From an uncultured Methanosarcinales archaeon (GTDB lineage: Archaea > Nanobdellota > Nanobdellia > Woesearchaeales > GW2011-AR9): 64,000 nt of DNA. Position 1 is the stretch's first letter; each line of letters starts with the position of its first letter. Shown piece by piece: positions 14,499 through 60,619 of the stretch. The notes beneath the pieces are model-generated. The model was not told the DNA's origin. It saw only the letters and a program-made list of their open reading frames with translations, and did not search any database. The stretch covers positions 96,001 to 160,000 of the forward strand of contig CAYFMJ010000001.1 of the NCBI GenBank assembly GCA_964344235.1, in the 5' to 3' direction. Both the position numbers and the translations under genes were made by a program.

Positions 14499-14604
14499 AA
14501 GTCAGTTTCGGCGAGTGGGGCACGGCGCGATTATGGTGTCTTATTCGAACATTTTATTCTTGGACACCATGCGCCCCATTTGGCGCCACTCGCCTTCTCG
14601 ACTC
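14499..14604 (-). ncRNA. Candidate structured ncRNA, copy C of a three-copy family
   Basis: Nested helices GGCGAGUGG/CCACUCGCC, GGCGC/GCGCC, AUGGUGUC/GACACCAU with conserved AAUC bulge and CAAAUGG/GU loop; TTTATAAA at 14628-14635. Confidence 0.65.
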
Positions 14605-14657
14605 AATAAAAAAGTGTTTTCGTAATGTTTATAAAATCGTGAGCAGAATAGAAGAGA

Positions 14658-15209
14658 ATGGTCAATGCGACAGCAGTCGGAGGGGTTGTAGAGACAGCGC
14701 AGTCCTACTTTTACTCAATTATCATTGGAATTGTGATTCTGTTAATTGGTTTTGGCGCGGGAGTATTAGCGAAAAGAATCGTCCACAGGGTTCTGCGAGA
14801 AATTGAGTTGAATAAGATTATGAGTAAAGTGGGAATGCGTCATAATTTAGAGCGAACGATTAGTATTGTTATCTCGTATCTTATTTACATCGTAACGATT
14901 ATCATCTTTTTGAAGCAGTTTGGTGTGATTCCCATCTACATTGTGTATCTCATTGTGGGAGCAATTCTCATGTTAATGGCATTAACATTTATTGTAGGTT
15001 TGAAAGATGTTATCCCGAATTTTGTGGCATGGGTATTGTTGCAGAGAAAGGGTAAGATTAAGGAAGGGTATCATGTTAACGTTAGGGAGATTTATGGCGT
15101 TGTAGAAAGGGTTGGTTTTTTAGAAACAGAAATTAAGACAGATAATAATGATATTTTATATGTGCCAAATTCGTTATTTTTGAAATCGAAGTTTAGAGTA
15201 AGGAAGTGA
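14658..15209 (+). CDS. Small-conductance mechanosensitive channel (MscS-like)
   Basis: Three TM segments, 'GLKDVIPNFVA', 'IKEGY.V', 'G.VERVGFLETEIKT....ILYVPNS'. Confidence 0.8.
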   Translation: MVNATAVGGVVETAQSYFYSIIIGIVILLIGFGAGVLAKRIVHRVLREIELNKIMSKVGMRHNLERTISIVISYLIYIVTIIIFLKQFGVIPIYIVYLIVGAILMLMALTFIVGLKDVIPNFVAWVLLQRKGKIKEGYHVNVREIYGVVERVGFLETEIKTDNNDILYVPNSLFLKSKFRVRK

Positions 15210-15449
15210 TTACTTCGCACTCTCTAACATGCTGATAACATCCCACACTTGTGTTCTATTATAAGAAGGCATGTCGATGTTGTTTAAATCTTCTAATTCC
15301 ATCAACGCTTTCTCGATAGGAAGTTCAACATCACTGGAAAGAATTGTAATAACACTGGCTGCTTTTTCTTTAAATCGTTTGCAACAGTCTGGTTCTTCTT
15401 TTAATTCGCTGAGGTACTCAATGACTTCAGTCACTTGTTGTTTGTTCAT
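15210..15449 (-). CDS. UPF0147 family protein
   Basis: 'ALMELEDL....MPSYNRTQVWDVISMLES'. Confidence 0.75.
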   Translation of the reverse strand: MNKQQVTEVIEYLSELKEEPDCCKRFKEKAASVITILSSDVELPIEKALMELEDLNNIDMPSYNRTQVWDVISMLESAK

Positions 15450-15771
15450 CGTTGTTCTCTTCCTGTAATTCTTTCATAACTTCTTTCTGTAAGGATTCCA
15501 TTTGCTCTTTGAGTTTATCCTCTTGTGAAGCGAAGTTTTTCAAATGGATCTCTGCAACGTCTTTCTTTTCCTGGAGATCTTTTGAAAGGTCTTCTTTAGA
15601 AGCGGCAATCATCATTTTGCCAAGAATCTTATAACTTTTATCGGTTGTTTTTATTTCAGTCAATGCTGAGTTTAATTCTGTTAATTGTGATTCAATTTGT
15701 TGTTTTTGCATAGAGATGGAGTGAAGGTTTTGCTGCAGGAGTTGTAGTTGGTTTACCTTATCTGATGTCAT
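15427..15771 (-). CDS. pfdB: Prefoldin beta subunit
   Basis: Coiled-coil, 'ALTEI......SYKILGKMMI'; follows rpoP as in the conserved archaeal operon. Confidence 0.88.
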   Translation of the reverse strand: MTSDKVNQLQLLQQNLHSISMQKQQIESQLTELNSALTEIKTTDKSYKILGKMMIAASKEDLSKDLQEKKDVAEIHLKNFASQEDKLKEQMESLQKEVMKELQEENNDEQTTSD

Positions 15772-15780
15772 TTTTAAGAA

Positions 15781-15915
15781 TTAACGTGCTTTTACTTTGT
15801 TAACGGTTCTCCGATCTTTATAGAGGATCTTACCGCCACAGTAGGGGCATCTAATTTTAGTACGAGTGTACTCGTCCTCTACTTTCTTTCCACAGTCAAA
15901 ACAAACGTAATACAT
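15781..15915 (-). CDS. rpoP: DNA-directed RNA polymerase subunit P (Rpo12), 44 aa; missed by ORF track
   Basis: Hand translation MYYVCFDCGKKVEDEYTRTKIRCPYCGGKILYKDRRTVNKVKAR*; two CxxC; lies between rpl37ae and pfdB. Confidence 0.93.
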   Translation of the reverse strand: MYYVCFDCGKKVEDEYTRTKIRCPYCGGKILYKDRRTVNKVKAR

Positions 15916-15916
15916 T

Positions 15917-16114
15917 TTATTTGGGTTTATAGGCTTTGCCAGCAAATTTAATGCCGGTTTTTTTACAGATCCAGATACCTAAGGAAAGTCGTTTTACTGT
16001 TGGTTTATTACAGAACGGGCTTTTGTACTTTTTTCGCTGCTGTGCTTCAATAGCGCCGAATTTCTTCTTAGGTTTTCGCCCGTACCGAGCTCCGAATCGT
16101 TTTGTTGATTTCAT
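15917..16114 (-). CDS. rpl37ae: 50S ribosomal protein L37Ae (eL43)
   Basis: 'STKRFGARYG', 'QRKKY.SPFC.K..VKR...GIWIC.KTG..FAG.AY'. Confidence 0.9.
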   Translation of the reverse strand: MKSTKRFGARYGRKPKKKFGAIEAQQRKKYKSPFCNKPTVKRLSLGIWICKKTGIKFAGKAYKPK

Positions 16115-16127
16115 GTTGTTAGTATAA

Positions 16128-16234
16128 TGGTGGGGCCGCCCAGATTTGAACTGGGGTCTAAGCGTCCCAAACGCCCAATGCTAGATTGCTCCTAGCGACT
16201 TGTGTCTTGCTAGACCAAGCTACACTACGGCCCC
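16128..16234 (-). tRNA. tRNA-Pro(TGG) with 29-nt D-loop intron (16186-16214) and encoded CCA
   Basis: Acceptor GGGGCCG/CGGCCCC-A-CCA, T-arm CCCAG-TTCAAAT-CTGGG, anticodon arm GGGCG-TTTGGGA-CGCTT; removing 29 nt restores D-arm GTGT-AGCTTGGTCTA-GCAT. Confidence 0.92.
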
Positions 16235-16293
16235 GTAGCGTCTTTATAAATGTTATGCTGAAAAAGGAGTAATTTAAAAGGTTTGTGGTTGAA

Positions 16294-17331
16294 TTAGAAC
16301 TGTTTGATTATAATGAGGGATTTGGGTGCTCTAGTGAGAATTGTCAGTTTATTGGTCCAAACAACGGTATCTTCGATTCGTAAGCCGATTTTATTCTTGA
16401 TGTAAATGCCGGGTTCTATAGTAAATGGAACATTCTTTTCTACTTTCGCTGGTTGGGAAAAGAATGGATCTTCATGGACTTCAATTCCGATTCCATGCCC
16501 CAGAGAGTGGATGAAGTATTTCGCGTGTTTTTTTAGTGTATTTCTTGCTGTTGTGTCGAGTTCCTTCAAAGAAATTTTTGGTTTGATTGCTTTAATTGCT
16601 GAAGTTTGTGCATTGAGTAAGAGGTTGTAGAGCATTTTTTGTTCTTCATTGGGAGTGCCTAAAAATATACACCGCGTCATGTCAGCACAGTAGTTTTTGT
16701 AGCGTGCGCCGAAGTCAACAAGGAGGAAACCGCGTTTTAGTGTGTCTGTAGAGGTAATGTGATGAGGAGTGGCAGCGTTTGTGTGGGTTGCAGCTATTGT
16801 GGGGAAGGCTAAAGAAGCGCCTTTGGATTTGATGTGTCCTTCCAGGAAGAACGCAACGTCTTGCTCTGTTTTGAGCGTTTTCTTGGGGAGTTCTTTTACT
16901 AAGGCATTGAAAGCTGATGTGGTGATGGAGCAGGCTTTTGCGATTAATTGTAATTCCTTCGCAGTTTTTTGTTTTCTTAATGCATTGAGCTGCTTTGAAA
17001 TATCAACAAATTTGGCTTTGGGGAATATTTTCTTTGCTTTGTCAAGCTGTTGGACTGTAAGAGAAGTCTTGTTAATGCCAACTTTCTTGGTGGTTTTACT
17101 GGTAATTGTTTTTTCAAAAGTTTTATCGAGAGTTTTGATCTTGATGTTCTTTAATCGTGGCTTTTTGTCTAATTTTGAGATGTAGAGTTTTGCTGATTTG
17201 GGAGTGATGAGGAGATAGCCGTGGGATGGTTCCATTTGAGTGAAGTAGGTGATTGTTGGATCAGGCGCCACGAAGAATGTTGTTTGGATTCTGTTCTTTT
17301 TGAGGAATCTCTGGAATTGTAAGAGTTTCAT
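16294..17331 (-). CDS. Xaa-Pro aminopeptidase (M24)
   Basis: 'DFGARY..YCADMTR', 'HSLGHGIGIEVHE', 'TIEPGIY', 'RIEDTV'. Confidence 0.92.
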   Translation of the reverse strand: MKLLQFQRFLKKNRIQTTFFVAPDPTITYFTQMEPSHGYLLITPKSAKLYISKLDKKPRLKNIKIKTLDKTFEKTITSKTTKKVGINKTSLTVQQLDKAKKIFPKAKFVDISKQLNALRKQKTAKELQLIAKACSITTSAFNALVKELPKKTLKTEQDVAFFLEGHIKSKGASLAFPTIAATHTNAATPHHITSTDTLKRGFLLVDFGARYKNYCADMTRCIFLGTPNEEQKMLYNLLLNAQTSAIKAIKPKISLKELDTTARNTLKKHAKYFIHSLGHGIGIEVHEDPFFSQPAKVEKNVPFTIEPGIYIKNKIGLRIEDTVVWTNKLTILTRAPKSLIIIKQF

Positions 17332-17408
17332 GAGGAAAATAAAATCAACAGTGTAATTAAATCTTATGCCTCCATAATCATTATAAACCTCAAAAATATG
17401 CTTTTTCT

Positions 17409-18611
17409 ATGCAAAAAGCGGTGTTGAAGAATGGATTAAAGGTTTTGTACCACCATAAACAGGGGAATGCGGTAGTGATTCAGGTAATGGTACATGTAGG
17501 GAGTAATAGAGAAACACCTAAAGAGCGAGGGATTTCCCACTTCCTTGAACACATTCTGTTTGAAGGAACTATAAAGAGGCCGACGAATGAATTGATTTCA
17601 AATGAAATTGAGAAGATTGGCGGCGAGTTTAATGCGTACACCGCAAATGAAAGGACATGTTTCTACATTAAAGTTCTGCAGAAGCATTTTGGAAAAGCAG
17701 TAGAGATCTTATCAGATATTTTACATAATTCATTATTTGATGAGGATCATATCAAGAAAGAGAAGCGGATTGTGTTAAAAGAGATTGATATGGTGTATGA
17801 TGAACCAACGTACTATCAATGGATTTTATTACAGCAGAGTTTGTTTTCAAAACACCCATGTAGGGTTCCAACGTATGGAGATAGGAAAGTTATTGCCAAT
17901 TTAACACGGCAGCAGGTGATTGATTATTTTGAGAAATATTACTTATCTAATAACATGACTGTTTCGATTGTAGGAGATGTGAAGCAGTGGAAACAGAAGA
18001 TTGCAAAGAACTTTACGCTGCCGCAAGGGAAAGTCCCTGCTAGGAAAAGGATAGTGGAACCTGCTGCGAAACGGAACGTTGTTAAGAGAGAGAAGAGGAA
18101 AACTCTCAATACGTATAGTATTCTTGGTTTTAAGACTGTTCCCAGAAATCATCCCGATAGTCCGGTGTTGGAAGTGATTAATGGTATTTTAGGAAGAGGG
18201 CAGAGTGGCAAGATCTTTATTGAAGTGCGAAGTAAGAGAGGATTAGCGTATGAAGTTGGAACACAGAATGTGGCGGAGATTAATTATGGTTATTTTGCTG
18301 TGTATTCAACCGTTGCAAAGGCAAAGGTTCGGTTGGTGAGAGATTTGGTGTTGAAAGAAATTGGGAAGTTATCTGCTGTAACGGAACAAGAAGTAAAAGA
18401 GGCGAAGACGTTTATTGAAGGGAGTTTCCTATTAGGAATGGATGATGCGCAGAAGTTGGCAGATCAATTATTATTCTGGTCGCAAGTTGAGGATGCGGCA
18501 CTTATGACGAAGTTTTTAGCAAGAATAAAGAAAGTTACGGTTGCTGATGTGAAGAGAGTGGTGAAGAAGTATTTTAAGAATTATACACACGTTGTGATTG
18601 AAGGGAAGTGA
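17409..18611 (+). CDS. M16 (insulinase/pitrilysin family) zinc peptidase
   Basis: Inverted zincin 'HFLEH', 'NAYT', 'R...GLAY.V'. Confidence 0.92.
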   Translation: MQKAVLKNGLKVLYHHKQGNAVVIQVMVHVGSNRETPKERGISHFLEHILFEGTIKRPTNELISNEIEKIGGEFNAYTANERTCFYIKVLQKHFGKAVEILSDILHNSLFDEDHIKKEKRIVLKEIDMVYDEPTYYQWILLQQSLFSKHPCRVPTYGDRKVIANLTRQQVIDYFEKYYLSNNMTVSIVGDVKQWKQKIAKNFTLPQGKVPARKRIVEPAAKRNVVKREKRKTLNTYSILGFKTVPRNHPDSPVLEVINGILGRGQSGKIFIEVRSKRGLAYEVGTQNVAEINYGYFAVYSTVAKAKVRLVRDLVLKEIGKLSAVTEQEVKEAKTFIEGSFLLGMDDAQKLADQLLFWSQVEDAALMTKFLARIKKVTVADVKRVVKKYFKNYTHVVIEGK

Positions 18612-19551
18612 TTTTAATCCCGTTACTGTAGGCGGTTGCTAAAAAATCTAAGTTATCTATTGTGAATGTTTCTTTTAGTTTAAACCATTTTTCAAATATG
18701 CCAAAGGAAACTGGTTGGTCATTTATGTTAAAGTTTGCGTGGAAAAAGCTAGCATCTTCTAAGCAAACCGTTAGGAATGTTTCTTGCAAGATTGCGTCTC
18801 TGCAAGCTCCTTCTGTTCCTAGAAGGAATAATTCGTTTTGTGTAAGAGTTGGCACGTTAGAGATATCAGATACTGGACCCGTGATGTAGTACTGAGGGGT
18901 GTATTCCAATGATGTGCTGGCTGCGTTGTTTTGTTGCGTGCTATCTGTTACCGTGCCAGAAACCGAAAGAGTAAAGGAATGTGTCCCTTCCCCTAATGTA
19001 GGTAGGGTGAGTTGAAGGTCGTTGTAGATTGTTCCTGCAACTCGAAGTGTATGTTTTGGTTCTAATTGATAGAAGAAAATGCTGCCTTTGGTTTTTTCTT
19101 GTTGCAATTTTTGTGACGTGTCAACTGTTGAAATTTTTCCCGTGAAAATGTCAAGAGCTTGAGGGAAATCCTCGTATGGGGCACCTGATGCTGGATGGAT
19201 GGTTAATGGTATTAATTGATTATTTCTTTCAATGATATTTAGTATGTCGATTGTTCTCTGAGCGTCCCTACCAATAACATCAGATGTTAAGGTTACACGA
19301 AAATTGCCAATTGCCGGGGCAGAGCCTTCATTCGTTATTGCAAAATTTATTTGTAAAGGCGTAGCAGGAGAGAAGTGTTTCGTACCCGAGGTTGTTGTGA
19401 AAGTATGGGGAAGCTGGTTGATCTCAAAGGACGTGATTGAGACGTCTGGGGTTCCTTCATAGATATTTTGTAAATTGTATAGTTGATCTGGAAACTCTTG
19501 CGCTAGGGCCAGAGGGATTAGTACCAACAGGAAGAGGAGATATTTTTTCAT
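18574..19551 (-). CDS. Secreted hypothetical protein, possible CARDB/Ig-like domain
   Basis: Signal peptide 'MKKYLLFLLVLIPLALA'; 'INFAITNEGSAPA..FRV' and 'DS.QQNNAAS' resemble CARDB. Confidence 0.55.
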   Translation of the reverse strand: MKKYLLFLLVLIPLALAQEFPDQLYNLQNIYEGTPDVSITSFEINQLPHTFTTTSGTKHFSPATPLQINFAITNEGSAPAIGNFRVTLTSDVIGRDAQRTIDILNIIERNNQLIPLTIHPASGAPYEDFPQALDIFTGKISTVDTSQKLQQEKTKGSIFFYQLEPKHTLRVAGTIYNDLQLTLPTLGEGTHSFTLSVSGTVTDSTQQNNAASTSLEYTPQYYITGPVSDISNVPTLTQNELFLLGTEGACRDAILQETFLTVCLEDASFFHANFNINDQPVSFGIFEKWFKLKETFTIDNLDFLATAYSNGIKITSLQSQRVYNS

Positions 19552-20621: not shown

Positions 20622-20677
20622 GACTTATAGGAAAGAAGATGTGTTTAAAAAATTAATTGAAAAAAAGAAAAGAAAAT

Positions 20678-21478
20678 TTAGCCATTAATACAGAATTGCG
20701 CTGCTTTTATCCCACCAGCATAAGCCTGATAGATTATGTTGGATAACGTAAGCGAACTTCCATCAGCGAGGTTGACTGTTTCGCCCTCCATAACACTGAC
20801 TTCCTCCCCGTTAATAACCAAATCAACAGACTTTATACCACCAGCATATGCTTGGTACAGTAAATCGTCAAACACAACTTCGTAACTTTTTGAACCTGTT
20901 GTATAGGTATCTGATTCGCCTAGTTGAAGAGTTTCATCAATATCACATGGTCCCACGCAGTCATACTCTATATCAAAATCGTTTTGAGTTGGATCTGACG
21001 CACTAGCGAAAGGGTAACTAACTCCTTCAATCTTAAGTGTAAAGTCAACTTCGCCACTTGGGTCAACAGAATACTCGTATGTTTCGCCGTTTTTGTAGTT
21101 TTTGAATTTTATTTTTGGAGATGTTGCAGTTTGCTTGTCGGCACCTTTGTATTCGAAAGGTGTGCCCCCCAACATGAATGTATCCTTCTTTTCAAAAACG
21201 TCTCCACATTCTGCTTCAAATGCTTTCTGAGCAGCTGAGACATCGTCTTTTAACTCTTTAATTATGTCTACTGCCTTAGAAACCCTTTCGTAACAAGCAC
21301 TTAAGCCATAACTTGCTTCACCTACCAGAGCAGAGTCTTCTTCTACTCCTTCACCAACAAGTTCATCAAAATCCTCACCTACCGCTTGTTCAGAAGCAGT
21401 TTCTTGAGCACAACCAACAATTAGGACTAGACCAATCAATAAAATGCTAAAAATTAATATTTTCTTCATTGTAAACAC
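20678..21478 (-). CDS. Surface lipoprotein with duplicated 'YQAYAGGIK' S-layer-like module
   Basis: Lipobox 'IVGC'; 'LLYQAYAGGIKSVDLVING' and 'IIYQAYAGGIKAAQFCING' repeats. Confidence 0.6.
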   Translation of the reverse strand: MFTMKKILIFSILLIGLVLIVGCAQETASEQAVGEDFDELVGEGVEEDSALVGEASYGLSACYERVSKAVDIIKELKDDVSAAQKAFEAECGDVFEKKDTFMLGGTPFEYKGADKQTATSPKIKFKNYKNGETYEYSVDPSGEVDFTLKIEGVSYPFASASDPTQNDFDIEYDCVGPCDIDETLQLGESDTYTTGSKSYEVVFDDLLYQAYAGGIKSVDLVINGEEVSVMEGETVNLADGSSLTLSNIIYQAYAGGIKAAQFCING

Positions 21479-21576
21479 CTCATTTTAATTTTCTCTTGAA
21501 GGAAAAAGGACTATATAAAGTTAATTATAACAAAAAATTAGCAAAATATAAAAAATAGGGTTATTCTGAAGAGGGT

Positions 21577-23090: not shown

Positions 23091-23091
23091 T

Positions 23092-42491: not shown

Positions 42492-42974
42492 ATGGAGAAT
42501 ATTGTGTTGAAGGAAGGTCTTGGGGGAGATTTTGGTAGTTCTAAGCTCGTTTCTTTGATTGAAGGCAAAACGAAAAAAGAATTACTGTCTAATTTGAAAA
42601 TAAATAAAGGAAAAACAACAGTTTATAGGGCTTTGAGTGAGGAGATGTTACGGTTTGCTTTGGAAAGAACTGATGTTGATATTGTGTTGGGAATGGAGGG
42701 TATTCATTACAAAGATCACACACATTACCCTCGTGGCGGTTTGGATCAGATTACAAGTAAAATTGCTGCTGCGAAAGGTAAGACTATTGGGTTTTCGTTT
42801 GCGGATATTTTGCGTTCGAAAGATAGAGGAAGATTATTGGGTAGAATGATGTTGAATATTCGGTTGTGTAAGAAGTATAATGTCAAAATGGTGTTTAGTT
42901 CATTTGCCTCTTCAAAATCGGAGATGCGAAGTACAAAAGATTTGGAAGCATTTTGGCGCATTCTTTCTCGGTAG
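42492..42974 (+). CDS. RNase P subunit Rpp30 (short form)
   Basis: 'GLDQI..K.AA.K...IGFSF..IL...R..LL.RM..NIRLC.KY', 'SEMRS..DL'. Confidence 0.75.
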   Translation: MENIVLKEGLGGDFGSSKLVSLIEGKTKKELLSNLKINKGKTTVYRALSEEMLRFALERTDVDIVLGMEGIHYKDHTHYPRGGLDQITSKIAAAKGKTIGFSFADILRSKDRGRLLGRMMLNIRLCKKYNVKMVFSSFASSKSEMRSTKDLEAFWRILSR

Positions 42975-42981
42975 CGTTAAT

Positions 42982-42993
42982 AACATTTATAAA
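42982..42993 (+). promoter_or_regulatory. Archaeal BRE-TATA promoter of the surface-protein array
   Basis: AACATTTATAAA about 28 nt upstream of ATG 43021; the same AACATTTATAAA motif precedes the 2,061-aa gene (about 51679) and aIF2-beta (about 27212). Confidence 0.6.
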
Positions 42994-43020
42994 CAATGGT
43001 TGTTTGTTTTTGAGTATACT

Positions 43021-46000
43021 TATGGTGGAGAAAAAAAGAGGTTTAGTTTTAGTAGTCTTTGTTGCTTTTCTAGTAGTGATGAGCGTGGGTGTTTTAGGTG
43101 TTCCTGACAAGAATACAGATGCTTTTCCAACCATTGGACACCGGGCCGATTTAGGTTATGAATATGATCAGGGTTGTGGTTCTTATGATGTTGACGATTG
43201 CCCGCAAGGTGACACTTACAAGCTAGATGAAGATCACAGTACCTGTTCTGCATCAGGAAGCGATTTGTCTCCTTTATTCGATGCCTGTAAAATTTTTTTT
43301 GTCGATAAAGATGAGGGAAATGATGATGGGGGGTTTGGGCTAGCAGATGAGGGTTATATTCTAGACTCAGTTGGCTACGAAAAACTTGGCCTTCACAGCT
43401 ATGAGAAAGTCTGTGGGCAAGAAGGAGACCATGATAATGATGGGGTTGAGGGGCTAAAAGGAGCGAAGTTTAAAGCAGCTGATAATACTGCATATATTTG
43501 TGGAAATAACCTGGGAGAACCAAATAAATGGTATAAATGTACTTCAGAGACGCTTGACACTGTAACATGGGCAAACGGTGACTTATATAATTGTACTTTC
43601 AGTGCTAGTACTGGCTTTCCAACTTGGAAAAACGAAGGAGGGGATACGGACTTTGATACTTTTGCTCAAGAGGTAGATTGTAAAGATAACCCCCCGAGTG
43701 GATCCTGTTTAAACCTGGCACCAGAAGATTGTGCAAGCTCTCCTGAAAATTATGAATGCCCACAGTGTATTAACCCTGATGCGCCTGAGGTATGTGGAGA
43801 TGGCAAAAACAATGATTGCAATGAAGCGACTTCTGATAACTGTCATGATAATCAGGCAGCATGTGAGGCACTTGACACGGCAGTTGGTTGGAATATTCAT
43901 GATGAGAAATATGCTTGGCAACAAACGGGAAGCGAGGGAGCCGGTTTCTGTTGTGGATTCAGTGGAAGTGGTGATGGTAATGTAGGGGAGGTGTCGGAGA
44001 GTATTGGTGGCACTAACAAGCTATGTGTGAATAAAGAATATACCACAACAAACGGAGAGATTTCATCAAGTGAGACCGAAGGAGTTGAGTGTAGTGGATC
44101 TGGGTGGTGTTTAGTGAGCGCAGTTGTTGGGTCTAAGTTTCAGATATACACTATTGCAGAACCGGAAAAAGAACCTTATGATGTTGTTTCCAATGGAGAT
44201 AATTGGTATGAATGTAGTAGCAGCTACCATGAACCTCTGCTACCGGAAGATACAGGTGTAAGGACAAAGGCTAATGCGTTTTACTGCTTCGATGAGGGAA
44301 ATCATTGGAGTTGGGCTGAATGTCCTTTAGGGGAAGAGGGTGAAGTTGAAAGCGAGAATAGCGGTACGACTAAAATTAGGCACAAAGGAGATGGATTATA
44401 TCAGCTGTTTCCAACAAATGATAAAAACCAGTTTGGAGTTTTGGTAGATGCAAAGGATCCAATTTACACAAGTTTGTATAGTGAGGATTTCTTGTTAGAT
44501 TTTAGCGGATATAACCAATTGAATTTTATGATTCAGTTTCTGAGTGAAGTAACCCTGCCAGCTGATGTTAAGGTGCAAATTTATGGTTCTGATGATGAGC
44601 TGAAATGGCAAGGGAATGTTCTTGGCTTTAGTACTAATAATCCTGTGCTAGTTGCAGATACGTTCTTTCATGTGCAAGTTCCCATTGCTCCGTTTAAAGA
44701 TGTTGAGAAAGTTCTGATAGAGAGTATTGGCGACTTCAATCATATTGAGGTGAAGAATATTTATATGAGTGTCCAGGGAGAGCAACCCTACTTGTGTTCG
44801 GCAAAGCAATCAAACCAACCACAACAACCAGCATGGTTGACGAATGCAGATGACATTATTGAAAATACATTGATTACTGGAGAAAATATTTGTAATGAGT
44901 TGTATGGTGGCTGGTTAGGAGATGAAGTAGATGATGTCGAAAGAAGGTGTTGTGGTGATGATGTGGGGGAATATTATGCTGGCCCAGGAAAGAACGGTTG
45001 TTGGAATTCTGAAGTTGTTGTAGGTGGGGGAACAATGATGAATGCTCAAGTTGAGGTTACGTCACAATATTCAACAGTTGGAGAGGTTGAGGGTGTAGCA
45101 GTGAGAACTGTTACATTTGAGTGGGACTATGCAACGCCTTCAGAGGATCCGGTGACTCTTACGGATGCTGAGTGTAAGCAATATACAAAAGAGCACAATT
45201 GTCCTATTGGCTGTAAGTGGGTAGCTGATTACGGGGTTGGATGTATTGCATTAAATGCAGATGCGATTATTGCTGCACCAACTTCAGGCGTTAATACGCA
45301 AGAAGCTTCAATTGAGATTGAGTATGATGGCTCTACTGTTTCGCCGAAGTCTATCACACTGAAAGAATTGGGGTTTGAGGTTGAGGGTGTTGAATCAGGA
45401 GAGTTATCTATAAACACGGGAATCGAACTCTTCATTGCTGGCTCTTTTCAAGATCACGGTGATGAATTCGAGTTTTTCTCTGAGAGCGATTATATTTTAG
45501 GAAATAATCAGTTTGAAGTTGGCGATTTTAAAGATATTAGCTTTTCCTTTGTTCATGATGATAACTACTATGAAAATAATAAAGAAACGGTGAAGAAGCT
45601 TGTTGTTGGTACTCAACCAGAGGAAATGATGAAAACGTATTCGTGCTCTCAAGCGGCGTGTACGTTCCCAATTCCGGGGTTTCCACCGTATACTATCAGT
45701 AACCCGTTCCCTGATTTATATGAGATATATTTTGTTGATGGACCAGGAATTGATGATAGACATCCAATTGATAAGAATGGAAAGACGTTTGATCAGGTAG
45801 GGAATGTTGAAGTCACAAAGGTTGCACAGCAAGTTGTGCTTGTTAATAGTGATACAGAGCATCAATTTTATGGTTGTGCGCCTTCGCAAACGTTAATTAA
45901 CAGTATTCCTACAGAAGATCAAGATAGTTTCACTGCATTAAGCCATTGCGCGGTGAAAGCAGATAGGTTTTGTTCATTTAGTTACACGGAGGATGGCGTG

Positions 46001-47872
46001 ACAACAATTAATTCGTGGAGTGACGATGCTTTAGAACATGTTGGGTATGAAGCGTTAGAAGATGATCCGAAGGAGTTGGAGGGTTTGCATAATTTACAAT
46101 TGAAAACACTGCCTACTAACGAACAAGAGATAATTCCACCTACGGATAGAAATTGGTCGACAACTGCTTTCCCAGGACAGAATATTTTACCAAATGCGTT
46201 GTTTGAAATTGATAGTCAAGGAAGTGTGAAAAGAATTGCCCATTGGGTTGTTATTGATAGTGAAGGGTTAGAAGTTTCGAATGTTAATGCGAAACATATC
46301 CCTTTTGATGATCCAGAGAGGGTAGAGTTGGGAGGTGGAGAGATTCTAAGATCTTCTAGGATAGCACTGCCGCAAGGTGTTGATGAAACAATGGCGTTAT
46401 CGCATGAGGGAGAAGGGGTGAAAGAGAGTGTTATTTTAGTTGATGGTGAAGGGGATATTGATATTGTAAATGATGGAGAGTTCTCTACAGACGGTGCAGG
46501 GTATGTGGTAATTGAATTTACAGGACCTGGAAGTGTGGCACAACCGATCTTACAATTTGTCGATGAAGATTTTGAACCTGTTGCATTCCATTATGATGGG
46601 GAAAAACAAAAAGTGCAAGAAAATTTTCAGGAACGTGCAGGAGTAGCATGTTGCCCACAGGATTGGTGCTGGAATGGGTATACATGTGCAGAGCCGATGA
46701 GTGAAAATACCTTCGCAGCAGAGTTACTGCCAGATAATAGAACGTATAGGTGTGTAGGGGGAGAGTGGACAGAGCTGCCTGTAAAGAGAGATTGGAACGT
46801 GGCAGGATTTGGGTTTTGCGAACAAAAGGATCAGTGTTTCGTGACAAGTTCGTTAATGGGTGGCGATAATACTGCTGAGGCGATTGACTTTTACAATGGG
46901 AATTATCCAACCTGTGTTGACGATGGAGAGTTTATTTTCGACCATTACTGTGATGCCGGTAATTGGACTTCACGAACGAAGTTTATTGCATCGGAGTTAT
47001 TAGATGCGATTGGTGAGACAGATGAATATGCACTGTATTGTGATTCGTTTGAGAAAGTTCTTCCACAATTAGATGGGCATGATTTATTGTTTAGTGGGGA
47101 GTTGGTAGCGGATGCAGAAGTGGTTGGTTCAATTAGTGACCAGTTAGGGGGAGTGGAACCAGAACAGACGTTTATACAGGTGTGCTTTGAGAATGTGAAT
47201 AATAATGAACGAGGTAGAGAGTTAGTACCAACAGACCAGAATAAATGTGTGAATAATGTCTGTGTGTTGCAGTATAAACAGGGTGGAAAGAATAAAGTAG
47301 CGTTTGCAGCGTCTTTGAATCCGGCAGAGAACTCTTTCTTGACAGCGTTTGATATTCCAGCAGGAGAGGTAGCAACGTTATGTGGTGGTGAAGGGTTTAA
47401 TGATTGTAATGTTGACCTAGCAGGGGACTTTTGGTATTCAGAAGAGTTAGATGCGTTTGTGTATGGGAAAGATGGAATAGATTTAGATACAGGGTTCTTT
47501 GGAGGAATTCTGGATTTCTTTAGTGGTTTATTTGGTAATGGTATTGCGGAAGAGAATACGGATTTTATTGCACAAGCGGAGAATTATCGAGATGTATATG
47601 TGTTGCAGCATGAGAATAAATTGGTTCGAGCGATTAAAGAGCAGCAAGGTCAGAAAGAGATTCTAGTAGCGGAGTTTGAAGGGTTTCAATCGCCAGTGTG
47701 TGAGTACGTGGAGAATGTTGGGTTGCCTGAGAAGCCAGCGTTTGAAGGGGCAACGAGCGTGGATTTGGTGTGTAGTAGTGAGGAAGGCGTGCAGAAGTTT
47801 GAATTAGTTGATGATACGGATGTGTTCTGGGATCGGTTTGCGGGAAGGTTGAGGCCGCAAGAGAGTAGTTAG
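43021..47872 (+). CDS. Very large secreted Cys/Asp-rich surface protein (about 1,617 aa)
   Basis: Start MVEKKRGLVLVVFV... (ATG 43021, after CATTTATAAA); MopE-like metal-binding motif 'DTDFDTF....DC.D...INPDAPEVCGDGKNNDC'; many Cys clusters; no C-terminal TM. Confidence 0.8.
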
Positions 47873-47968
47873 AATATGTCCCGCTTGCACGGCACGATTA
47901 CGGTGACTTCTTGAATCTTTTTTATCTACGCCACCGTGTGCCTCCATTGGCAAAGCGGACATATCCTA
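47870..47968 (-). ncRNA. Candidate structured ncRNA, copy A of a three-copy family
   Basis: UAGGAUAUGUC/GACAUAUUCUA closing stem, GGCAC/GUGCC, ACGGUGGC/GUCACCGU, AAUC bulge; TTATAAAA on the minus strand at 47992-47985. Confidence 0.7.
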
Positions 47969-48015
47969 TCACGAAAGTAATTAATTTTATAAGATAGAAG
48001 TGATTAGGTGTTTCT

Positions 48016-50583
48016 ATGAAAAGAGGGCAGATAACTGTGTTTATTATAGTTGGTATTATTGTGTTATTTGTCTTTCTGTTGCTGATTCAGTTAAGTAGTT
48101 CATTTGAAAAAGAACAGTTGGAACAGCAGCAAGAGGGGATTCTTACCAAAGCATTCTATAAAGAGGGGTTACGGTTGTTTGTAGAGGATTGCTTAGAAGA
48201 TGAATTATCAAACGGTTTAGTGTTATTGGGCAAGCAAGGAAGATTATGGGATGAAGGTGGTGGAGTATTGGGGTTTGAGAATGGCGTAACAGGTGTGCAA
48301 TTCGGTGAAGATCAAGTGTTTTATGGAATTACACGAGAAGATCATGAGTTACCTGAAGCATATCCTTGTGATGAACATACAGGGGAGGAGCCAGCGTTTT
48401 GTCAATATGGTTATCCCAATATCTCGGTAGGCTTTGGAGAGAAGTCGTTATTTACAACAGAACATTTACAGGAAGATTTAACACGTTATGTTTCCATTAA
48501 GACTGTTGAGTGTGTTGATTCTTTTGTGAAAGAAAATGTTTCGCAAAGCGCAGTATTGGTGACGGAGAAACCAGAGGTAAGCGTTACATTATTGCCACAG
48601 GGAATTCCTGTTCAGGTTGATTATCCAATTCGCTTTTCGGTTGGAGGGGAGGAGTTTTTTTCATTAGCATCGTTTGATTTCTTTTACCCTTCAGAGTTTG
48701 GTAGATTTGTGCAGAAAGCAGCAGTGTTTCCGATGAAGTGGGATCAGCTGTTTGTCGATTTTGATTACAGTGAAGAAGTGTTTATTGATGAGAAATTTAC
48801 GTACGGGTCTGTAAAGGAGATAGGGGAATGTGAGGGGGTAGTGGGTGAGTACTTCTGCGAAAGAGCATTGTCGCCATATACTGGAGGAATTCCTGTGCAA
48901 ATGAAGAAAGATGAGGTTGCGGGTGATACCGTGTTTACGTTTTCGTATCCGTGGAGTAGCGTGATTGCGTCTTCTGTTGATGTTATTGATGTACCACAAG
49001 ATAGCATGTATCGCTTTAGAATTGCACGGCAAAACAGGCCGCCAGCATTGGAGTATGAAGAGAGGTTAAGTTGTATTAGTGAAGAGTATGATTATTTAGT
49101 AATTAAAGGAAGTCAGAATTATGATGAAGTAGAGATTAGTTTAGATGCAATGGACCCAGATGAAGATGAAGAGTTAGTGTATAGTTTTGAATCTTCATTG
49201 AGTGGTGTTGTGGAAGGAAATACGTTTACTGTTTCTGGCGAGGCTTTGCCCGATGAAACAGGAGTGTATGATGTTGTAGGAAGTGTTGAGGACGAACATG
49301 GTTTGGTGGATTCGCAGAGAATTAGAGTGTTGGTGGATAGAGATGTGGGGGCAGAGTTGTCACTACACATGCCGTATGATTTAGGAGAAAGAGGCTTGTA
49401 TGAAGAGATTTATAGTCCTGAAAATGGATATATTGTGTCGGTGGAAGATCCGATATTTTTTGACGTGCAAATGCCGTTGAAGAGTGCAGGAGCGACGTTT
49501 GAAGAGACGACATTGACGTACACAGGGGATGAAGAATTTGTATTTACGCTGTCTGAGTTAAGTGACTTTGGTGGAGGTGGGTGTTTCAGTTTTCCTGGGT
49601 TTTTGCTTGGAAAATGTGGTGATGAGGAAGGTTTAGGATTTTATGGCGAGTATGTTGTAAGTGATGCTGGCACGGTTGATGATACTTCAAAAATATGGAA
49701 TTGGAAAACGTGGTTGAATGACCCTAGCAATGTGAAACCGAAAACAATGCCAACAAACTTCTTTAAAGAGGTTAAGGGGGGGGAAGATTTAATCTTAGAT
49801 GTTGATGTGAGTTATTGTAGTGAAGAGTTGGATATCCCTGAAATAACGATTCCCCTGAATGTGGTTGAATGTTTACCACATAAGAATGCAGATCATCCAT
49901 TTCCGTACCCATACCATACTGTTAAAGTTGATCCAGAAACGGGTGAGAGAAGTGAAGAGGAGATTAATCCATTTTTAGCAGAGCATGCCTGTTGTGGGAA
50001 TTTCGAGTATAAGAAACCAGAGGAAGTTTGTTATGAAAGTCTGCCAGAGCAAGGCTGTTTTGGTTTAGCATCTGATGATTTGGTATTATTATCGGATGGA
50101 AATACTGATTTAGAAGATCTTGCAGGGTATATTGTGGAAGAGAGAGTAGAGAAAGCATATTGTACCGGAGACCGAGGGAATGTATGTGGTGAAGGAAACT
50201 TTGAGAGTGTTATTGTCGATGGGGGAAAATGTGGAAATAGAGAAGCGTATGGGGGCACGTGTAATAAGGTGCATGGTTATTGTGAGGACCTGGACCCGTG
50301 GAGTATTAATGAGGAGGAGAAAGCATGGTGTAATGGGCCAGTTGGTTGTGGGACAACAACGAGTGTTTGTACAACGTCTATTGTGTATACTGGCTCTGTG
50401 CCAAATGTTTTTGCGGGTGGCAACGTTGAAAATACTATTCAAGCAAATAATCAAGATTTTCAATGTGGTGGATGCACGTTTGAAGGCCAACAATGTTTCT
50501 TGTTGTTCAGTGGAGTGCCTGCAACGTGTAATAAACTTGGAGCGGGCGTGTTTGAATGTGGTGGCGGAGGTAAAGGGGGATGA
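48016..50583 (+). CDS. Large pilin-like protein with class III signal peptide
   Basis: MKRG|QITVFIIVGIIVLFVFLLL; Ig-like 'NRPP.L...D.MDPD.D', Cys-rich C-terminus. Confidence 0.75.
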   Translation: MKRGQITVFIIVGIIVLFVFLLLIQLSSSFEKEQLEQQQEGILTKAFYKEGLRLFVEDCLEDELSNGLVLLGKQGRLWDEGGGVLGFENGVTGVQFGEDQVFYGITREDHELPEAYPCDEHTGEEPAFCQYGYPNISVGFGEKSLFTTEHLQEDLTRYVSIKTVECVDSFVKENVSQSAVLVTEKPEVSVTLLPQGIPVQVDYPIRFSVGGEEFFSLASFDFFYPSEFGRFVQKAAVFPMKWDQLFVDFDYSEEVFIDEKFTYGSVKEIGECEGVVGEYFCERALSPYTGGIPVQMKKDEVAGDTVFTFSYPWSSVIASSVDVIDVPQDSMYRFRIARQNRPPALEYEERLSCISEEYDYLVIKGSQNYDEVEISLDAMDPDEDEELVYSFESSLSGVVEGNTFTVSGEALPDETGVYDVVGSVEDEHGLVDSQRIRVLVDRDVGAELSLHMPYDLGERGLYEEIYSPENGYIVSVEDPIFFDVQMPLKSAGATFEETTLTYTGDEEFVFTLSELSDFGGGGCFSFPGFLLGKCGDEEGLGFYGEYVVSDAGTVDDTSKIWNWKTWLNDPSNVKPKTMPTNFFKEVKGGEDLILDVDVSYCSEELDIPEITIPLNVVECLPHKNADHPFPYPYHTVKVDPETGERSEEEINPFLAEHACCGNFEYKKPEEVCYESLPEQGCFGLASDDLVLLSDGNTDLEDLAGYIVEERVEKAYCTGDRGNVCGEGNFESVIVDGGKCGNREAYGGTCNKVHGYCEDLDPWSINEEEKAWCNGPVGCGTTTSVCTTSIVYTGSVPNVFAGGNVENTIQANNQDFQCGGCTFEGQQCFLLFSGVPATCNKLGAGVFECGGGGKGG

Positions 50584-57700: not shown

Positions 57701-57903
57701 ATAGTTTAGCGAAGAAGTATGTTAAGCATAAAGAAGATATTAAACCAGGATTACGAGCGGGTGAGAAGAGTGTGTTTGCGCGGTTAGATAGTATTGCGAA
57801 GCAATCGTCGCCGAAGGATGTGAAGAAGGTTGTAAGTAAAAAGGAAGCGAACGATATTTTTAGCAAGCTAGAAAAGATAAGTAGGAAGAGGAAGAAGAAA
57901 TGA
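51718..57903 (+). CDS. Giant (2,061 aa) Cys-rich adhesin-like membrane protein
   Basis: Signal peptide; carboxypeptidase-regulatory/PEGA-like repeats ('G.F.FDNLEAGSY.VTASK.GY'), Fn3-like 'GTSYVYRIKAY', Ig-like repeats, TSP3-like DxDxDG repeats, TM, basic tail ending 'DIFSKLEKISRKRKKK'. Confidence 0.82.
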   Translation: MMCKKRGFILVVLALFLVVLSSFVFAESSGCYVYASGSSDLYCVENVLESAATADCNLFGDCDINEAFLENTACSSVAACEVVTCNVDCQDRTLGKCQELGEELYGVPGEAVPFEEYDAICSPGCCVLTSPGGDQTCQPNLPLQCDDLATKKGFDMSFLPGVVGASCINSCGADVEKGNLVVTVVNDEGDGVVASVSLVGFTEIAESKGNGVYEFSELTPSTYVVKVSAAGFGSESVSVIVEGEVTEVSVVLSPVEGVGSISGVVNGEGEPLSGATVFVQGGGIEEIATTLGNGAFSFDNLEAGSYVVTASKVGYKSLSQPVLLQEGAEKVLTFDLEETSLEGVTVTAFVEGNAQPGVSVFVDGKFKGKTKFQTDGSLFIPFLEEGEHTFFATFQGVYESGEEVFEVEGGEEQEFELFLKKTFGECSFGQPNDHKNVEVFALEHVLGKEQVGLVWETPCPEVVSYLVEKQEVGSEAVEQMSFSIGQTEYIDADVEWGTSYVYRIKAYYVDGSSPRYSEQWNEQTIVMGSAECENGFFETGAGHSFCQAGSENKKTVFTCSAENQVIPQQQCADAPGELFYCSPIIEFTAGCKSDSACSLAGTPFGLFSTEESCYGVEASAAVSGGAANYCYYDAAAVEVSTVVNQCVSCANVESCFDYQSEDACGVNSCLSEVCKWVEGASSPELVDYSLFYSSYNEESLFVGEETGAGYCVPEEKYEETDACGLCSAGSTLFENYYCTADVCSNLGACYSENSLSECNECQEVPTGSVSCETYVTEQECNGVGGSSKDAYERITRSADSCSWGACVWEGLENGAGQCVKDGDADGANDCLTIPQGGNAAACRADVTPPSTSLSAAETAIVSIGKPELTFVGDDSSEKLLQQNQLGELWYCVTPLGVDTCTSEHFEVVPYSGNLITEELVIDVTDSDFFADGVAGETYLLKFFSKDIYSNQEDVQEVYIYADLVLPSFTIGDEITINGDVADLTVFLEDLNEPVSCTFTLEPIIGFESVKTVTVPRDAQVKSATFTGLQGVSYDLSVECEDDFANVHSESKKYVFNYDQSISLINPPFLGAIAQNAVQFEVSTVVASQCELYETATNTLLGVFATNEEGKSHLTEPVGGLFEGEYAAEHKVRCVEDLSGKEAEAYFHFFVDFTPPQTLITLQEGSHVASPTEYGWEVSFIDSADVSFVCDAGNGGFACDETLYCLGEGCELASSPGYVTYEAPFTVTETTEICYYSTDIGNTPFPFVTCGDILVEGAGVTLEKPTPYMFVGEVWGVSNEPVFEWQFFTKVPTQECAFDFTENIDVETIEPFKKLQNVGGKYLFEGFPGEVISAYGSAGGVKTLYVQCANAFELVGSPQKMHLEYDPTAPSILSVGAEPNPVLEGITVLLSVETDDKSVCKYSDVSNGGGSKEYQTMEFSFPGEEEGVMYIGHEDIFWLSVTQPQQEFTIAVQCMNGAGDLSEVEEIGFFVDYTALGSILSLLPDGYTAATNVTLQAETSKTGWCEYKVDEEYIVFAETTGKTHSQPIGAADEGEYIFPVQCTMGDHTVPGVIDFVVDRTAPVISEVEDYTYSCGADELSVMVYSDEENISQYFYDVFEKGSKFVGTNGSSVASGSLLSDTVSGELPLKIPTDDLEENKSYFVKVGAIDAAGNLGKVVQSDGVTITDADHAGCEEDGGLGVTFESLTNASCTSQSIALKCSDSAGCGVIEYGTSGDSASCVAEKAYTGQNIQFEEAGWLCYYVESYSGENASGSTLVQFDDEDGDGIHDSCDLCENTDSGKVVGSNGCADGQLPPDKQKEDKDKDGLPDAWEKLYDANGCELSLLSADSDDDGISDADEDYDQDGYSNFQEYQVGSDPCNDDSYDLSDSQFPSGDSGTGGVGKSGGADVVAWVFLIVGLLLVLGGVGYLVYYYKYAPSRGKRGVPVRPRVGVARPVVMQKKKSVFDTLFSGLQRKKRDVTKDRSRRSVFSEFSSDSARIPHVDAALRGERSHERLHSLAKKYVKHKEDIKPGLRAGEKSVFARLDSIAKQSSPKDVKKVVSKKEANDIFSKLEKISRKRKKK

Positions 57904-58409
57904 ACACCCGAGGAATGGCGATCGGCCAGGTGTTTATTTTTATCGTTGCTGCAATTACGTTTGCACTGATTATGATTTTTGGTGGAAAAGCAATTGTTGA
58001 TTTTATCGGTCAGGGGGAACAGGTAGAGTTTGTACAATTTAAGACAGATGTAGAAACCTCGGTGCAACAAATTTATACTGAGTTTGGCGCGATTCGAGAG
58101 AAAGAGTTTAGTTTGCCGCCTTCGTATGAGCAAGTGTGTTTTGTTGATTTAGATTATGAAAATGAAGAGAGTGTTGTGTTGTTACGTGGGAAAGATCCGG
58201 TAGCGGCGGATGCATGGCAAACGGCAATGGAAGAGGGGGGGTATGGCGGTTTTGATGTGAATGTGTTTTTAACGCCGACAGCTCCCAATCCAATAAAAGT
58301 TCATCCGATCAAGATGGATAATGGTTTTTTATGTGTTGATGTCGTGCAGGGGGAATTTACAATTCTGCTTGAAGGAAAAGGAGACCATACGTTTCTGTAT
58401 ACAAAATGA
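57900..58409 (+). CDS. Pilin-like protein (class III signal peptide)
   Basis: MNTRG|MAIGQVFIFIVAAITFALIMIFG. Confidence 0.7.
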   Translation: MNTRGMAIGQVFIFIVAAITFALIMIFGGKAIVDFIGQGEQVEFVQFKTDVETSVQQIYTEFGAIREKEFSLPPSYEQVCFVDLDYENEESVVLLRGKDPVAADAWQTAMEEGGYGGFDVNVFLTPTAPNPIKVHPIKMDNGFLCVDVVQGEFTILLEGKGDHTFLYTK

Positions 58410-59479
58410 ATAGGAATGGGCAAGTAGCGATTACATTTAATTGGGTGTATGTGTTGATAGCGGGAGCGGTCATTCTGATGTTTTTTGTTGGGATTGTGGT
58501 GAAGCAGAAAGCTGTTTCAGAGGAGAGGTTGAATACGGAAGTGTTGCAAGTGTTGGATTCAATTTTTACTGCAGCAAGTGTGTCTGATAAAACGCGGAAT
58601 TTTGTGAAAATTGGTGGTCTGGGGAAAGAAGAGGTGTTTTTTCGCTGTAGCGATGGAGTGACAGAGTTTGGTGTTACGGGGAAGAGTTTTACGAAGGAGA
58701 ATGCGATAGATCCGATTTTTGCACCTAGCTCGGTTAAGGCACCGCGGTTAATTTTGTGGAGTTTACCATATAATATGCCATTTAAAGTGGTTGATTTTTT
58801 GTTGGTAACGTCTTCGAATACAAAGTACGTCGTGTATGGAAAAGGGCCGTTTGTGTCAGAGTTTATTACGGCCACTGATGATAATGATGAGTTGTTGCAG
58901 ATTGATGCCAGCGTTGTTGATGGAATAGATAGTGTGGATCCAGGAAAAGCGTTTGCAGTTCGGATAGTTGATACGGATGGTGTTGGTTTGAAAGAGATGC
59001 CTTTGGAGTTAGCGGATTTTGACGATAGTAAAGTGACGGGTGTTTCTTTTGTTTCCGGTGGAGTACAGTATTACAAGAAGCAAGGGAGTGGCTGGGTGAA
59101 GAAGGGAAAAGTGTTGCCGATCGTTGCGATGGATGAAGAGAGGCAGGCAGCGAAGTATGCAGCTATTTTTGCAGCAGGACCAGAGGAGTATTGGTGTGGT
59201 ATGCAGAAGGCGTTTGAACGATTAGAATTATTGGATGAAGTGTATACAGGAAAAGTTGGGGAGATGGTTTTAGCTGAAGAGAGTGGTGTGTGTGCGACGT
59301 TATTAGCGCCAGGCGATAGTATTGGAGAAGCGATGGAGAGTCATAGTATTGGCGTGAAGCAATGTTTAGCGTCGCTTGACGTGCAACCGGAAGTGTGCAG
59401 TGATTTGATGGCACATGCTTCTGCTGTTTCCTTTGCCAATGAAGAGTTATCGGTAAATAGTTGTATTACGTTATATTAA
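58406..59479 (+). CDS. Pilin-like protein (class III signal peptide)
   Basis: MNRNG|QVAITFNWVYVLIAGAVILMFF. Confidence 0.7.
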   Translation: MNRNGQVAITFNWVYVLIAGAVILMFFVGIVVKQKAVSEERLNTEVLQVLDSIFTAASVSDKTRNFVKIGGLGKEEVFFRCSDGVTEFGVTGKSFTKENAIDPIFAPSSVKAPRLILWSLPYNMPFKVVDFLLVTSSNTKYVVYGKGPFVSEFITATDDNDELLQIDASVVDGIDSVDPGKAFAVRIVDTDGVGLKEMPLELADFDDSKVTGVSFVSGGVQYYKKQGSGWVKKGKVLPIVAMDEERQAAKYAAIFAAGPEEYWCGMQKAFERLELLDEVYTGKVGEMVLAEESGVCATLLAPGDSIGEAMESHSIGVKQCLASLDVQPEVCSDLMAHASAVSFANEELSVNSCITLY

Positions 59480-59480
59480 G

Positions 59481-59978
59481 ATGAAAAAAGGCCAAGTTCA
59501 TATGTCGGAGACGATTGCAGTACTGTTTATTTTCTTTGTTCTAGTGCTGTTTGGGTTGGTGTTTTATTTTAAGTATACAAGCATCGCAGTACAAGAGCAG
59601 GAAGAAGAGTTGTTTGCAAAAAGAGCGATTGATGTTACGACTAAGACCATCTTTTTACCTGAGTTATTGTGTACGAAAGGAGTGTATGAATCAGAAGATT
59701 TCTGTATCGATATGATGAAGTTACGTTCGGCAGATGAGGTGTTTGAACAGCATATGGCTGATTATTATTTTGAAATGTTTGGCTATGCGAACATTACTGT
59801 TGCAGAACTGTATCCGGCAGTTGGGGAGACGGATTGGGTGTTATATGAACGGATGAAGCCGAATTTTACACGTAGAGATAGAACGTTCTTTGTCGTTGCG
59901 TTAAAAGATCAGACAGAAGGTGTAGGAATAAACCCGTCATATGGGTTTGGCTATGTGACTGTTGAGGTGTTTTCATGA
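59481..59978 (+). CDS. Pilin-like protein (class III signal peptide)
   Basis: MKKG|QVHMSETIAVLFIFFVLVLFG. Confidence 0.72.
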   Translation: MKKGQVHMSETIAVLFIFFVLVLFGLVFYFKYTSIAVQEQEEELFAKRAIDVTTKTIFLPELLCTKGVYESEDFCIDMMKLRSADEVFEQHMADYYFEMFGYANITVAELYPAVGETDWVLYERMKPNFTRRDRTFFVVALKDQTEGVGINPSYGFGYVTVEVFS

Positions 59979-60466
59979 AGAAAGGTCAGATGGAGATGAT
60001 TGGACTTGTTATTATTGTGATACTTATTACATTAGGTATGTTATTTATGGCGTTATTTGCGTTGAATGATGATCCAGAGAAGAAAGTGTTTACCAGAAAG
60101 GAATTAGCGTCAAGCACGATGGCTGCCCTTATGAAGACGACGGCTTTTTGTAACGGTGGGTTACCGGAATTTGAGAAGGATTTGTTAGAGGATTGTGCCG
60201 GAACGAATACAGTGTATACGTGTGAGGGAATGGATAGTTGTGATTTTTTAGATATGAAGATTTCTGAATTGTTGGATGAAACGGTGGGGGCATGGGGGAA
60301 GACGTATGAATTTGAATCGGTGTCGGTTTCTAATGGTGAAGCGTTATTGCATATTTGGGATGAAGAAAGAGGGGATTGTCAGCGGCAGGAGAGGGATACG
60401 TCCGGGGAGTTTTATTTGCCTGCGAAGAGTGGTTTGGTGAGAAGTGTGTTGTATATTTGTGAATAA
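59975..60466 (+). CDS. Pilin-like protein (class III signal peptide)
   Basis: MKKG|QMEMIGLVIIVILITLG. Confidence 0.75.
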   Translation: MKKGQMEMIGLVIIVILITLGMLFMALFALNDDPEKKVFTRKELASSTMAALMKTTAFCNGGLPEFEKDLLEDCAGTNTVYTCEGMDSCDFLDMKISELLDETVGAWGKTYEFESVSVSNGEALLHIWDEERGDCQRQERDTSGEFYLPAKSGLVRSVLYICE

Positions 60467-60468
60467 AT

Positions 60469-60619
60469 GTAATATGTCAGCTTGCACGACACTATTACGG
60501 CAACTTCCTGAATCTTTTTTCTTCTACATCACCGTCTATCAGAAATTTTCAATTTCTGGGACATTCCAAAAATCTTTGATTTTTGTTATGTGCCTCCTTT
60601 AGTAAAGCAGACATATTAC
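60469..60619 (-). ncRNA. Candidate structured ncRNA, copy B (with 54-nt two-hairpin insertion)
   Basis: GUAAUAUGUC/GACAUAUUAC stem, GGCAC/GUGUC, ACGGUGAU/GUUGCCGU, AAUA bulge; TATATAAA on the minus strand at 60645-60638. Confidence 0.7.

Follow-up and report, generated by a model that had tools for sequence, protein, structure and literature searches.

MITEs (miniature inverted-repeat transposable elements) of the IS903 group of the IS5 family are short and non-coding, have inverted-repeat ends, occur in many dispersed copies and are flanked by duplications of 8-10 bp. ERIC/IRU sequences of enterobacteria, Correia/NEMIS of Neisseria and RUP/BOX of streptococci are imperfect intergenic palindromes of about 100-150 bp that fold as one long hairpin; for ERIC, selection on the fold at the RNA level has been argued from compensatory changes. 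In REP and REPIN sequences with their RAYT proteins, and in integron attC sites, structure is conserved above sequence, features are strand-specific and a link to replication exists. Small structured RNAs collected in Rfam (riboswitches, small ribozymes, H/ACA, C/D, signal recognition particle RNA, tRNA) combine a compact covarying fold with conserved junction nucleotides. Here we describe a family of archaeal hairpin elements that shares these features with each of the four groups. Three copies (A, B and C) lie in the window, a stretch of 64,000 nucleotides (C1:96001-160000; C1 is contig CAYFMJ010000001.1) of a 1.19-Mb woesearchaeal genome (G000). We consider them, with a probability of roughly 55%, to be old and now immobile copies of a non-coding, MITE-like hairpin family that is mobilised by the IS903 group and possesses a cis-acting core.

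The differences from the described systems concern ends, interior and mobility. Unlike IS903-group MITEs, the family has at least four classes of ends and a conserved interior with covarying helices and invariant unpaired bases, and no matching autonomous partner was found for it. ERIC, Correia, RUP and BOX are bacterial, Correia duplicates TA, and we know of none described with this core motif, with archaeal promoter-proximal sites or with a replication-strand bias. REP/REPIN and attC systems lack target-site duplications and need a cognate Y1 transposase or integrase, whereas the hairpins have duplications and do not co-occur with Y1 genes. In contrast to the RNAs of Rfam, the family is mobile by all indications, non-syntenic and without an Rfam or tRNA match.

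Eight copies in the window genome were picked up with a regular expression written for the core's 3' half. A covariance model of the core (65 positions, 15 base pairs) confirmed all eight at 55-88 bits and added a shorter ninth copy at 27 bits; the first-pass annotation had described a family of three. On the window itself the model detects A, B and C, at 55-88 bits, and nothing else. Among 90 further genomes of the GTDB family to which this one belongs, the same model detects 1 to 13 copies in each of 19; searched alike, 61 genomes from other families have none. An exact-pattern scan of one genome per species (185,579 species) returned 52 loci, all in metagenome-assembled genomes (MAGs) titled Woesearchaeota, Nanoarchaeota, Methanosarcinales or plain archaeon, while the viral contigs of IMG/VR gave no match. 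The family is confined to one family of Woesearchaeota (DPANN), where its spread is patchy, with 0 to 13 copies among close genera. Several third-party annotation (TPA) MAGs with the element (loci L055, L057, L061 and others) are Woesearchaeota-like and are titled "uncultured Methanosarcinales archaeon"; these titles are probably a labelling error in the public records.

The elements measure 85-151 bp, no open reading frame (ORF) fits inside, and their ends pair over 9-20 bp. Four sequence classes of ends recur across genera (Table 1). Genome G071 harbours 13 near-identical copies of 124-125 bp in unrelated flanks, with identity ending exactly at the hairpin base. At least 8 of these 13 have a perfect direct repeat of 8-9 bp on either side, different for each copy (for example TAAACAATC, CGTATTTTT and TTCATTATA). 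Perfect direct repeats of at least 7 bp abut the paired ends in 15 of 67 copies, among them those of G071 and the ninth copy of the window genome, against 1.3 in flank-swapped controls, and in fresh copies target-site duplications of 8-10 bp lie exactly at the hairpin base. Class IV copies carry 9-bp duplications, and one of them is the ninth copy of the window genome, which has IS903-like ends and the duplication ACAACAAAA on both sides. Many near-identical copies with target-site duplications, a MITE or REP pattern that the first-pass annotation had itself named as refuting its RNA reading, are thus present in relatives, and the ninth copy here likewise has its duplication. Duplications at the hairpin base indicate entry by staggered-cut insertion of the DDE-transposase type, and there is little doubt that the element is mobile.

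Copy C offers a comparison of orthologous sites. Its neighbours, a DRG-type GTPase gene and an MscS-like gene, have back-to-back promoters with the copy between them, and form a divergent pair conserved in at least 24 of 29 relatives. The spacer between the two genes is 213 bp long here. Of five relatives measured, four have a spacer of 78-111 bp; the fifth, of 957 bp, contains extra sequence. In the closest relative measured, two back-to-back TATA boxes occupy the spacer, and all 29 lack the core upstream of the GTPase gene. Given the shorter spacers and the missing core, copy C appears to be a lineage-specific insertion between two promoters and not a conserved leader, on a comparison of diverged orthologues and not with an exact empty allele. 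In a second comparison, between a G071 copy and the congener G042, synteny stops short of the element. Several fresh copies lie 13-16 nt from a TATA box (read by eye), and copies overall tend to a distance of 13-18 nt. The 233 ORFs that flank copies include no protein family that returns more often than chance would allow.

Conservation across 16 genera concerns the core and not the ends, and a single core is found under all four end classes. It comprises about 65 nt. The closing pairs of P1 are followed by an internal loop of 7/2 nt, with CAAUGGA facing GU, then by a P2 stem of 5 bp, an AAUC bulge and a P3 stem of 5-10 bp, topped by an A/U-rich apical loop that spans 20-23 nt in its long form. 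In an alignment of 39 copies from 17 genomes, 98% of the cells at paired positions are standard pairs. The corresponding share is 79% after column shuffling and 23-52% after sliding the partners by 1-3 columns. Changes on both sides of a pair occupy 119 cells versus 31.5 in shuffles, and 10 of the 15 pairs covary; it should be kept in mind that template-switch correction can also keep DNA inverted repeats paired. P2 occurs as GGCAC/GUGCC, GGCGC/GCGCC, GCCAC/GUGGC and GGGAC/GUCCC, and P3 differs in sequence in nearly every copy, even inside one genome. The unpaired segments GCCAAWKGAG, AAUC and the closing GUGC are near-invariant, while the apical loop is rich in A and U (A 417, U 240, G 98, C 66) and its sequence is not conserved. 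Compensatory change in the helices and conservation of unpaired core nucleotides, both proposed earlier from the three window copies, therefore hold for the whole family. A "UUC-R-R T-loop-like word", earlier proposed to lie in the apical loop, is local to the copies of the window genome; the family at large does not conserve it.

Core motifs of known kinds were considered on sequence grounds. Readings as kink-turn, loop E, T-loop or bulge-loop pseudoknot were rejected; the G-A pairs or loop complements that they need are not conserved. A Shine-Dalgarno-AUG reading of GGAGGCACAUG was rejected as well, with about half of the copies carrying ACG and the spacing too short. Rfam 15 returned nothing at the gathering threshold for the whole window and nothing at E up to 10 for C and A; at the same limit a copy from G071 gave one chance-level microRNA match (E=1.1). 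ARAGORN found no tRNA. That the fold lies outside known RNA classes, as the first-pass annotation had stated, agrees with these searches.

Each of the three window copies folds into the P1/P2/P3 hairpin first described for them, and their minus-strand sequences are exactly as given there, including the insert of 54 nt in B. Fold z-scores against dinucleotide shuffles are -7.4 (A), -5.4 (B) and -4.4 (C). The minus strand gives the more stable fold in all three, with minus/plus energies of -49.7/-46.5 (A), -39.7/-31.6 (B) and -41.2/-34.3 kcal/mol (C). Copy B is degenerate: one of its closing pairs is an A-C mismatch, and P3 contains three G-U pairs. Its insert consists of two small perfect hairpins with 8-bp stems and 3-nt loops, and no further copy of this insert exists in the window genome. 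The observation as such is confirmed; its reading as an unclassified functional RNA family is partly supported, in that the covarying fold is real and the copies belong to a mobile element instead of fixed small-RNA genes.

Table 1. Hairpin copies, end classes and associated features (window positions unless a contig is named)
Feature	Position	Strand	Description
Copy A	47870..47968	minus	99-nt hairpin element; class I ends (..GGAUAUGUC.. / ..GACAUAUUC..); core 47887-47951; 88.2 bits
Copy B	60469..60619	minus	151-nt hairpin element; class I ends; core 60484-60603; 55.4 bits
Insert of copy B	60536..60589	minus	54 nt, between P2 and P3
Copy C	14499..14604	minus	hairpin of class II architecture; core 14520-14584, enclosed by a 9-bp inner stem (14510-14594), an internal loop and the outer stem; 77.6 bits
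TATA-like box near A	47985..47992	plus	outside the element; by sequence reading serves downstream plus-strand gene (ATG 48016)
TATA-like box near B	60638..60646	plus	outside the element; by sequence reading serves downstream plus-strand gene (start 60679)
1639-aa ORF	42953..47872	plus	TAG stop 47870-47872
855-aa protein	48016..50583		adjoins copy A
DRG-type GTPase gene	13347..14444	minus	beside copy C
MscS-like gene	14658..15209	plus	beside copy C
Ninth copy of window genome	C2:100423-100471		class IV
Copy D	C1:387148-387211		class II ends
IS903-like transposon	C2:46344-52186		5.84 kb
Class I ends			GTAAGTAATATGTC
Class II			ends as in class III, with one additional inner stem
Class III ends			GTACGTATTTAGTT
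Class IV			122-123 bp; ends GGCTTGTCYAGAATA

Copy A was described as intergenic, which does not strictly hold; the TAG stop of the 1639-aa ORF falls in its terminal stem. Insertion of the copy may thus have replaced the original end of this protein, which has no Pfam match. On the other side, A adjoins the gene of an 855-aa protein whose homologues flank two element copies in genome G010 (loci L014 and L031). This could reflect either a shared target, such as a promoter hot spot, or a duplicated segment. Copies A and D have an identical P3 and near-identical apical loops, to which the loop of B is also close, yet A and D differ in end class. This suggests end exchange or gene conversion among copies within one genome.

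The core is asymmetric in several respects. Its unpaired nucleotides are strand-specific, with 7 nt opposite 2 nt and the 4-nt bulge. Within P2 and P3, G-U pairs exceed A-C mismatches on the sense strand by 15:3 (14:5 among distinct P3 stems), whereas the terminal stem, P1, is without it (19 against 15, and 33 against 50). An earlier inference of the strand from G-U over A-C is hence modestly borne out in P2 and P3 and fails in P1. Of 69 copies, 53 have their sense strand on the C-rich strand (38 strongly versus 6), as do all nine copies of the window genome. Skew of contig C1 is of replication type, strand-wide and positive over all 413 kb (about +0.2); at third codon positions GC skew reaches +0.46 for genes on the plus strand and -0.30 for those on the minus strand, with gene orientation at only 55:45. 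When local gene orientation is regressed out, the intercept stays negative (-0.047 +/- 0.012), which is indicative only, as copies are non-independent. Replication-type GC skew of the strength seen on C1 is notable for a DPANN archaeon. Skew of contig C2 changes sign near 60-70 kb, a candidate replication origin or terminus.

The G-U excess is not a mutational by-product, since skew-type pressure would yield A-C mismatches on the sense strand. The asymmetries can nevertheless be explained without RNA function. In E. coli, survival of imperfect palindromes is better if the lagging-strand template is not the one with the more stable hairpin. Many insertion sequence (IS) families, moreover, possess an intrinsic replication-linked orientation bias (PMC3971601).

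A candidate source of mobility exists in the window genome. Its sole PF01609 transposase gene is borne by the IS903-like transposon on C2, which has the ends GGCTTTGCACAAA and a 9-bp duplication TATAATTCC. Repeated TGCACAAA subterminal motifs are also seen in this transposon, and its IS903-like transposase is encoded in the region of C2:51548-52081. Class IV ends are similar to the IS903 inverted repeat, and a 9-bp duplication is an IS903 hallmark. Taken with the IS903-like transposon and the proximity of copies to TATA boxes, these features point to IS903-group (IS5-family) transposases, which would move the elements in trans; we regard DDE/IS903-like mobilisation as slightly better than an even bet. 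A weak likeness of the inner P1 (GCUUUGCC / GCAAGC) to an IS903-like end (GGCTTTGCAC) is held unproven, since the duplications lie outside the outer stem.

Several observations weigh against this account. None of the three window copies is flanked by a recognisable duplication. No autonomous partner with matching ends was found for classes I-III in a search of end motifs in G071 and the window genome, of split half-cores in the window genome, and of end motifs in 12 transposase loci; the core, too, is absent from 12 IS903-like transposase loci. Class IV shows a resemblance to IS903-type ends and no full-length element with identical ends. PF01609 genes do not co-occur with the element, being present in 7 of 19 carriers versus 44 of 100 family genomes overall, and G071, the site of the fresh burst, has none in a MAG that is 93% complete. 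For DDE transposases the element ends are normally sufficient, and the conserved, asymmetric, covarying interior is therefore unexplained by the standard MITE model. Finally, the G-U excess in P2 and P3 opposes the local mutational skew, which hints at selection on one folded strand, possibly RNA.

On the preferred account, a MITE-like element with a cis-acting core, the interior module would be required in cis for spread or survival of the element, given that conservation through all end classes and genera is seen for the interior alone and for no end sequence. The core might serve as a folded single strand or a bent DNA centre with which the machinery of transposition or replication can more easily handle so short an element. 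A free trans-acting RNA is a less favoured guess, and the role of the core is probably exerted in cis. Whether or not the core acts at the DNA level is to us an even question; action as RNA we hold to be rather doubtful. Unusual in any case is an interior that covaries and is better conserved than the ends within a MITE-like element.

The alternative that survives best combines both views: the element is a MITE and the core is its cargo, a structured RNA that binds protein or is catalytic, made by read-through or divergent transcription from promoters next to the insertion, so that transposition spreads an RNA gene. In this respect, covarying helices with invariant GCCAAWKGAG, AAUC and GUGC are as in RNA tertiary or protein-binding motifs, and the skew-opposing sense-strand G-U bias and the occurrence of one core under four end classes fit a cargo. 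The 5' end also faces the promoter of a divergent gene in 44 of 63 cases. On the contrary, the element contains no internal promoter or terminator, and the TATA box and B recognition element by copy A point to the neighbouring gene. Orientation relative to co-directional neighbours is variable (19 antisense versus 11 sense), P1 is without strand asymmetry, and neither an Rfam relative nor a co-occurring gene is known from our searches. The small G-U bias could also stem from selection against hairpins on the lagging-strand template. We consider this hybrid possible but distinctly less probable. Much the same tentative standing is given to the wider notion of the core as a functional folded nucleic acid, either RNA (a protein-binding platform or small ribozyme) or a recognition structure of single-stranded DNA, kept by or passed among MITEs with at least four kinds of ends.

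A hairpin of the REP/REPIN or attC type would be moved as folded single-stranded DNA during replication, by an HUH (Y1/RAYT) transposase or a tyrosine recombinase of Xer/integrase type. Preservation of shape over sequence, asymmetric extra-helical bases as in attC and IS200/IS605 ends, and an orientation biased relative to GC skew all suit such a route, and Y1 transposases are encoded by G071 and G054, the two copy-richest genomes. Yet HUH and tyrosine recombinases, as in IS200/IS605, REPIN and integrons, leave no variable 8-10-bp target-site duplications of the sort found here. Y1 genes (PF01797) do not co-occur with the element (6 of 19 carriers versus 37 of 100 overall), and none is encoded in the window genome or in the nearly closed, 6-contig G010. 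A Y1 gene 1.5 kb from a copy in G018 was rejected as a partner; an unrelated 418-aa ORF intervenes. Moreover, the folding strand is found on the C-rich strand, hence on the template of the leading strand, whereas IS608-type elements use the exposed lagging-strand template (PMC3971601). This route is accordingly judged improbable.

Still less credit is due to ordinary chromosomal small-RNA genes of a new class with minus-strand transcription units of their own. A stable covarying fold without a known-family match would suit them, as would the TATA-like boxes located about 16 nt (A) and 18 nt (B) upstream of the minus-strand 5' ends. These boxes are, however, better read as promoters of the adjoining plus-strand genes, for which distance, polarity and a flanking purine-rich stretch are right. 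Near-identical copies with target-site duplications, the patchy spread, the lack of synteny and an orthologous site of copy C shorter by about the element length largely refute this reading. Equally hard to credit is a cis-regulatory RNA of adjacent genes (5'-untranslated-region switch, 3'-end stabiliser or terminator): C does lie upstream of the same-strand GTPase gene, A abuts a stop codon and the antisense of the A-rich loop is an oligo-U tract of 4 to 7 U (copies viewed by eye) like archaeal terminators, but flanking genes are arranged in every way (divergent 22, both antisense 19, both sense 11, convergent 7), their distances are not fixed, their families are unrelated and the orthologous GTPase loci lack the core.

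For annotation, these hairpins of Woesearchaeota should be labelled mobile repeats and not small-RNA genes, and they mark recent insertions beside promoters. The family represents a clean case of a MITE whose conserved part is the interior and not the ends. If the asymmetries reflect palindrome maintenance and orientation-dependent survival only, the element is an ordinary one. If the core does function as a folded nucleic acid, DNA transposons would be the vehicle of a structured module in DPANN archaea, and the orientation bias would reflect the module's working. Should the asymmetries reflect a single-strand-dependent step of transposition or a hitch-hiking RNA, they would reveal a new propagation route for short archaeal elements.

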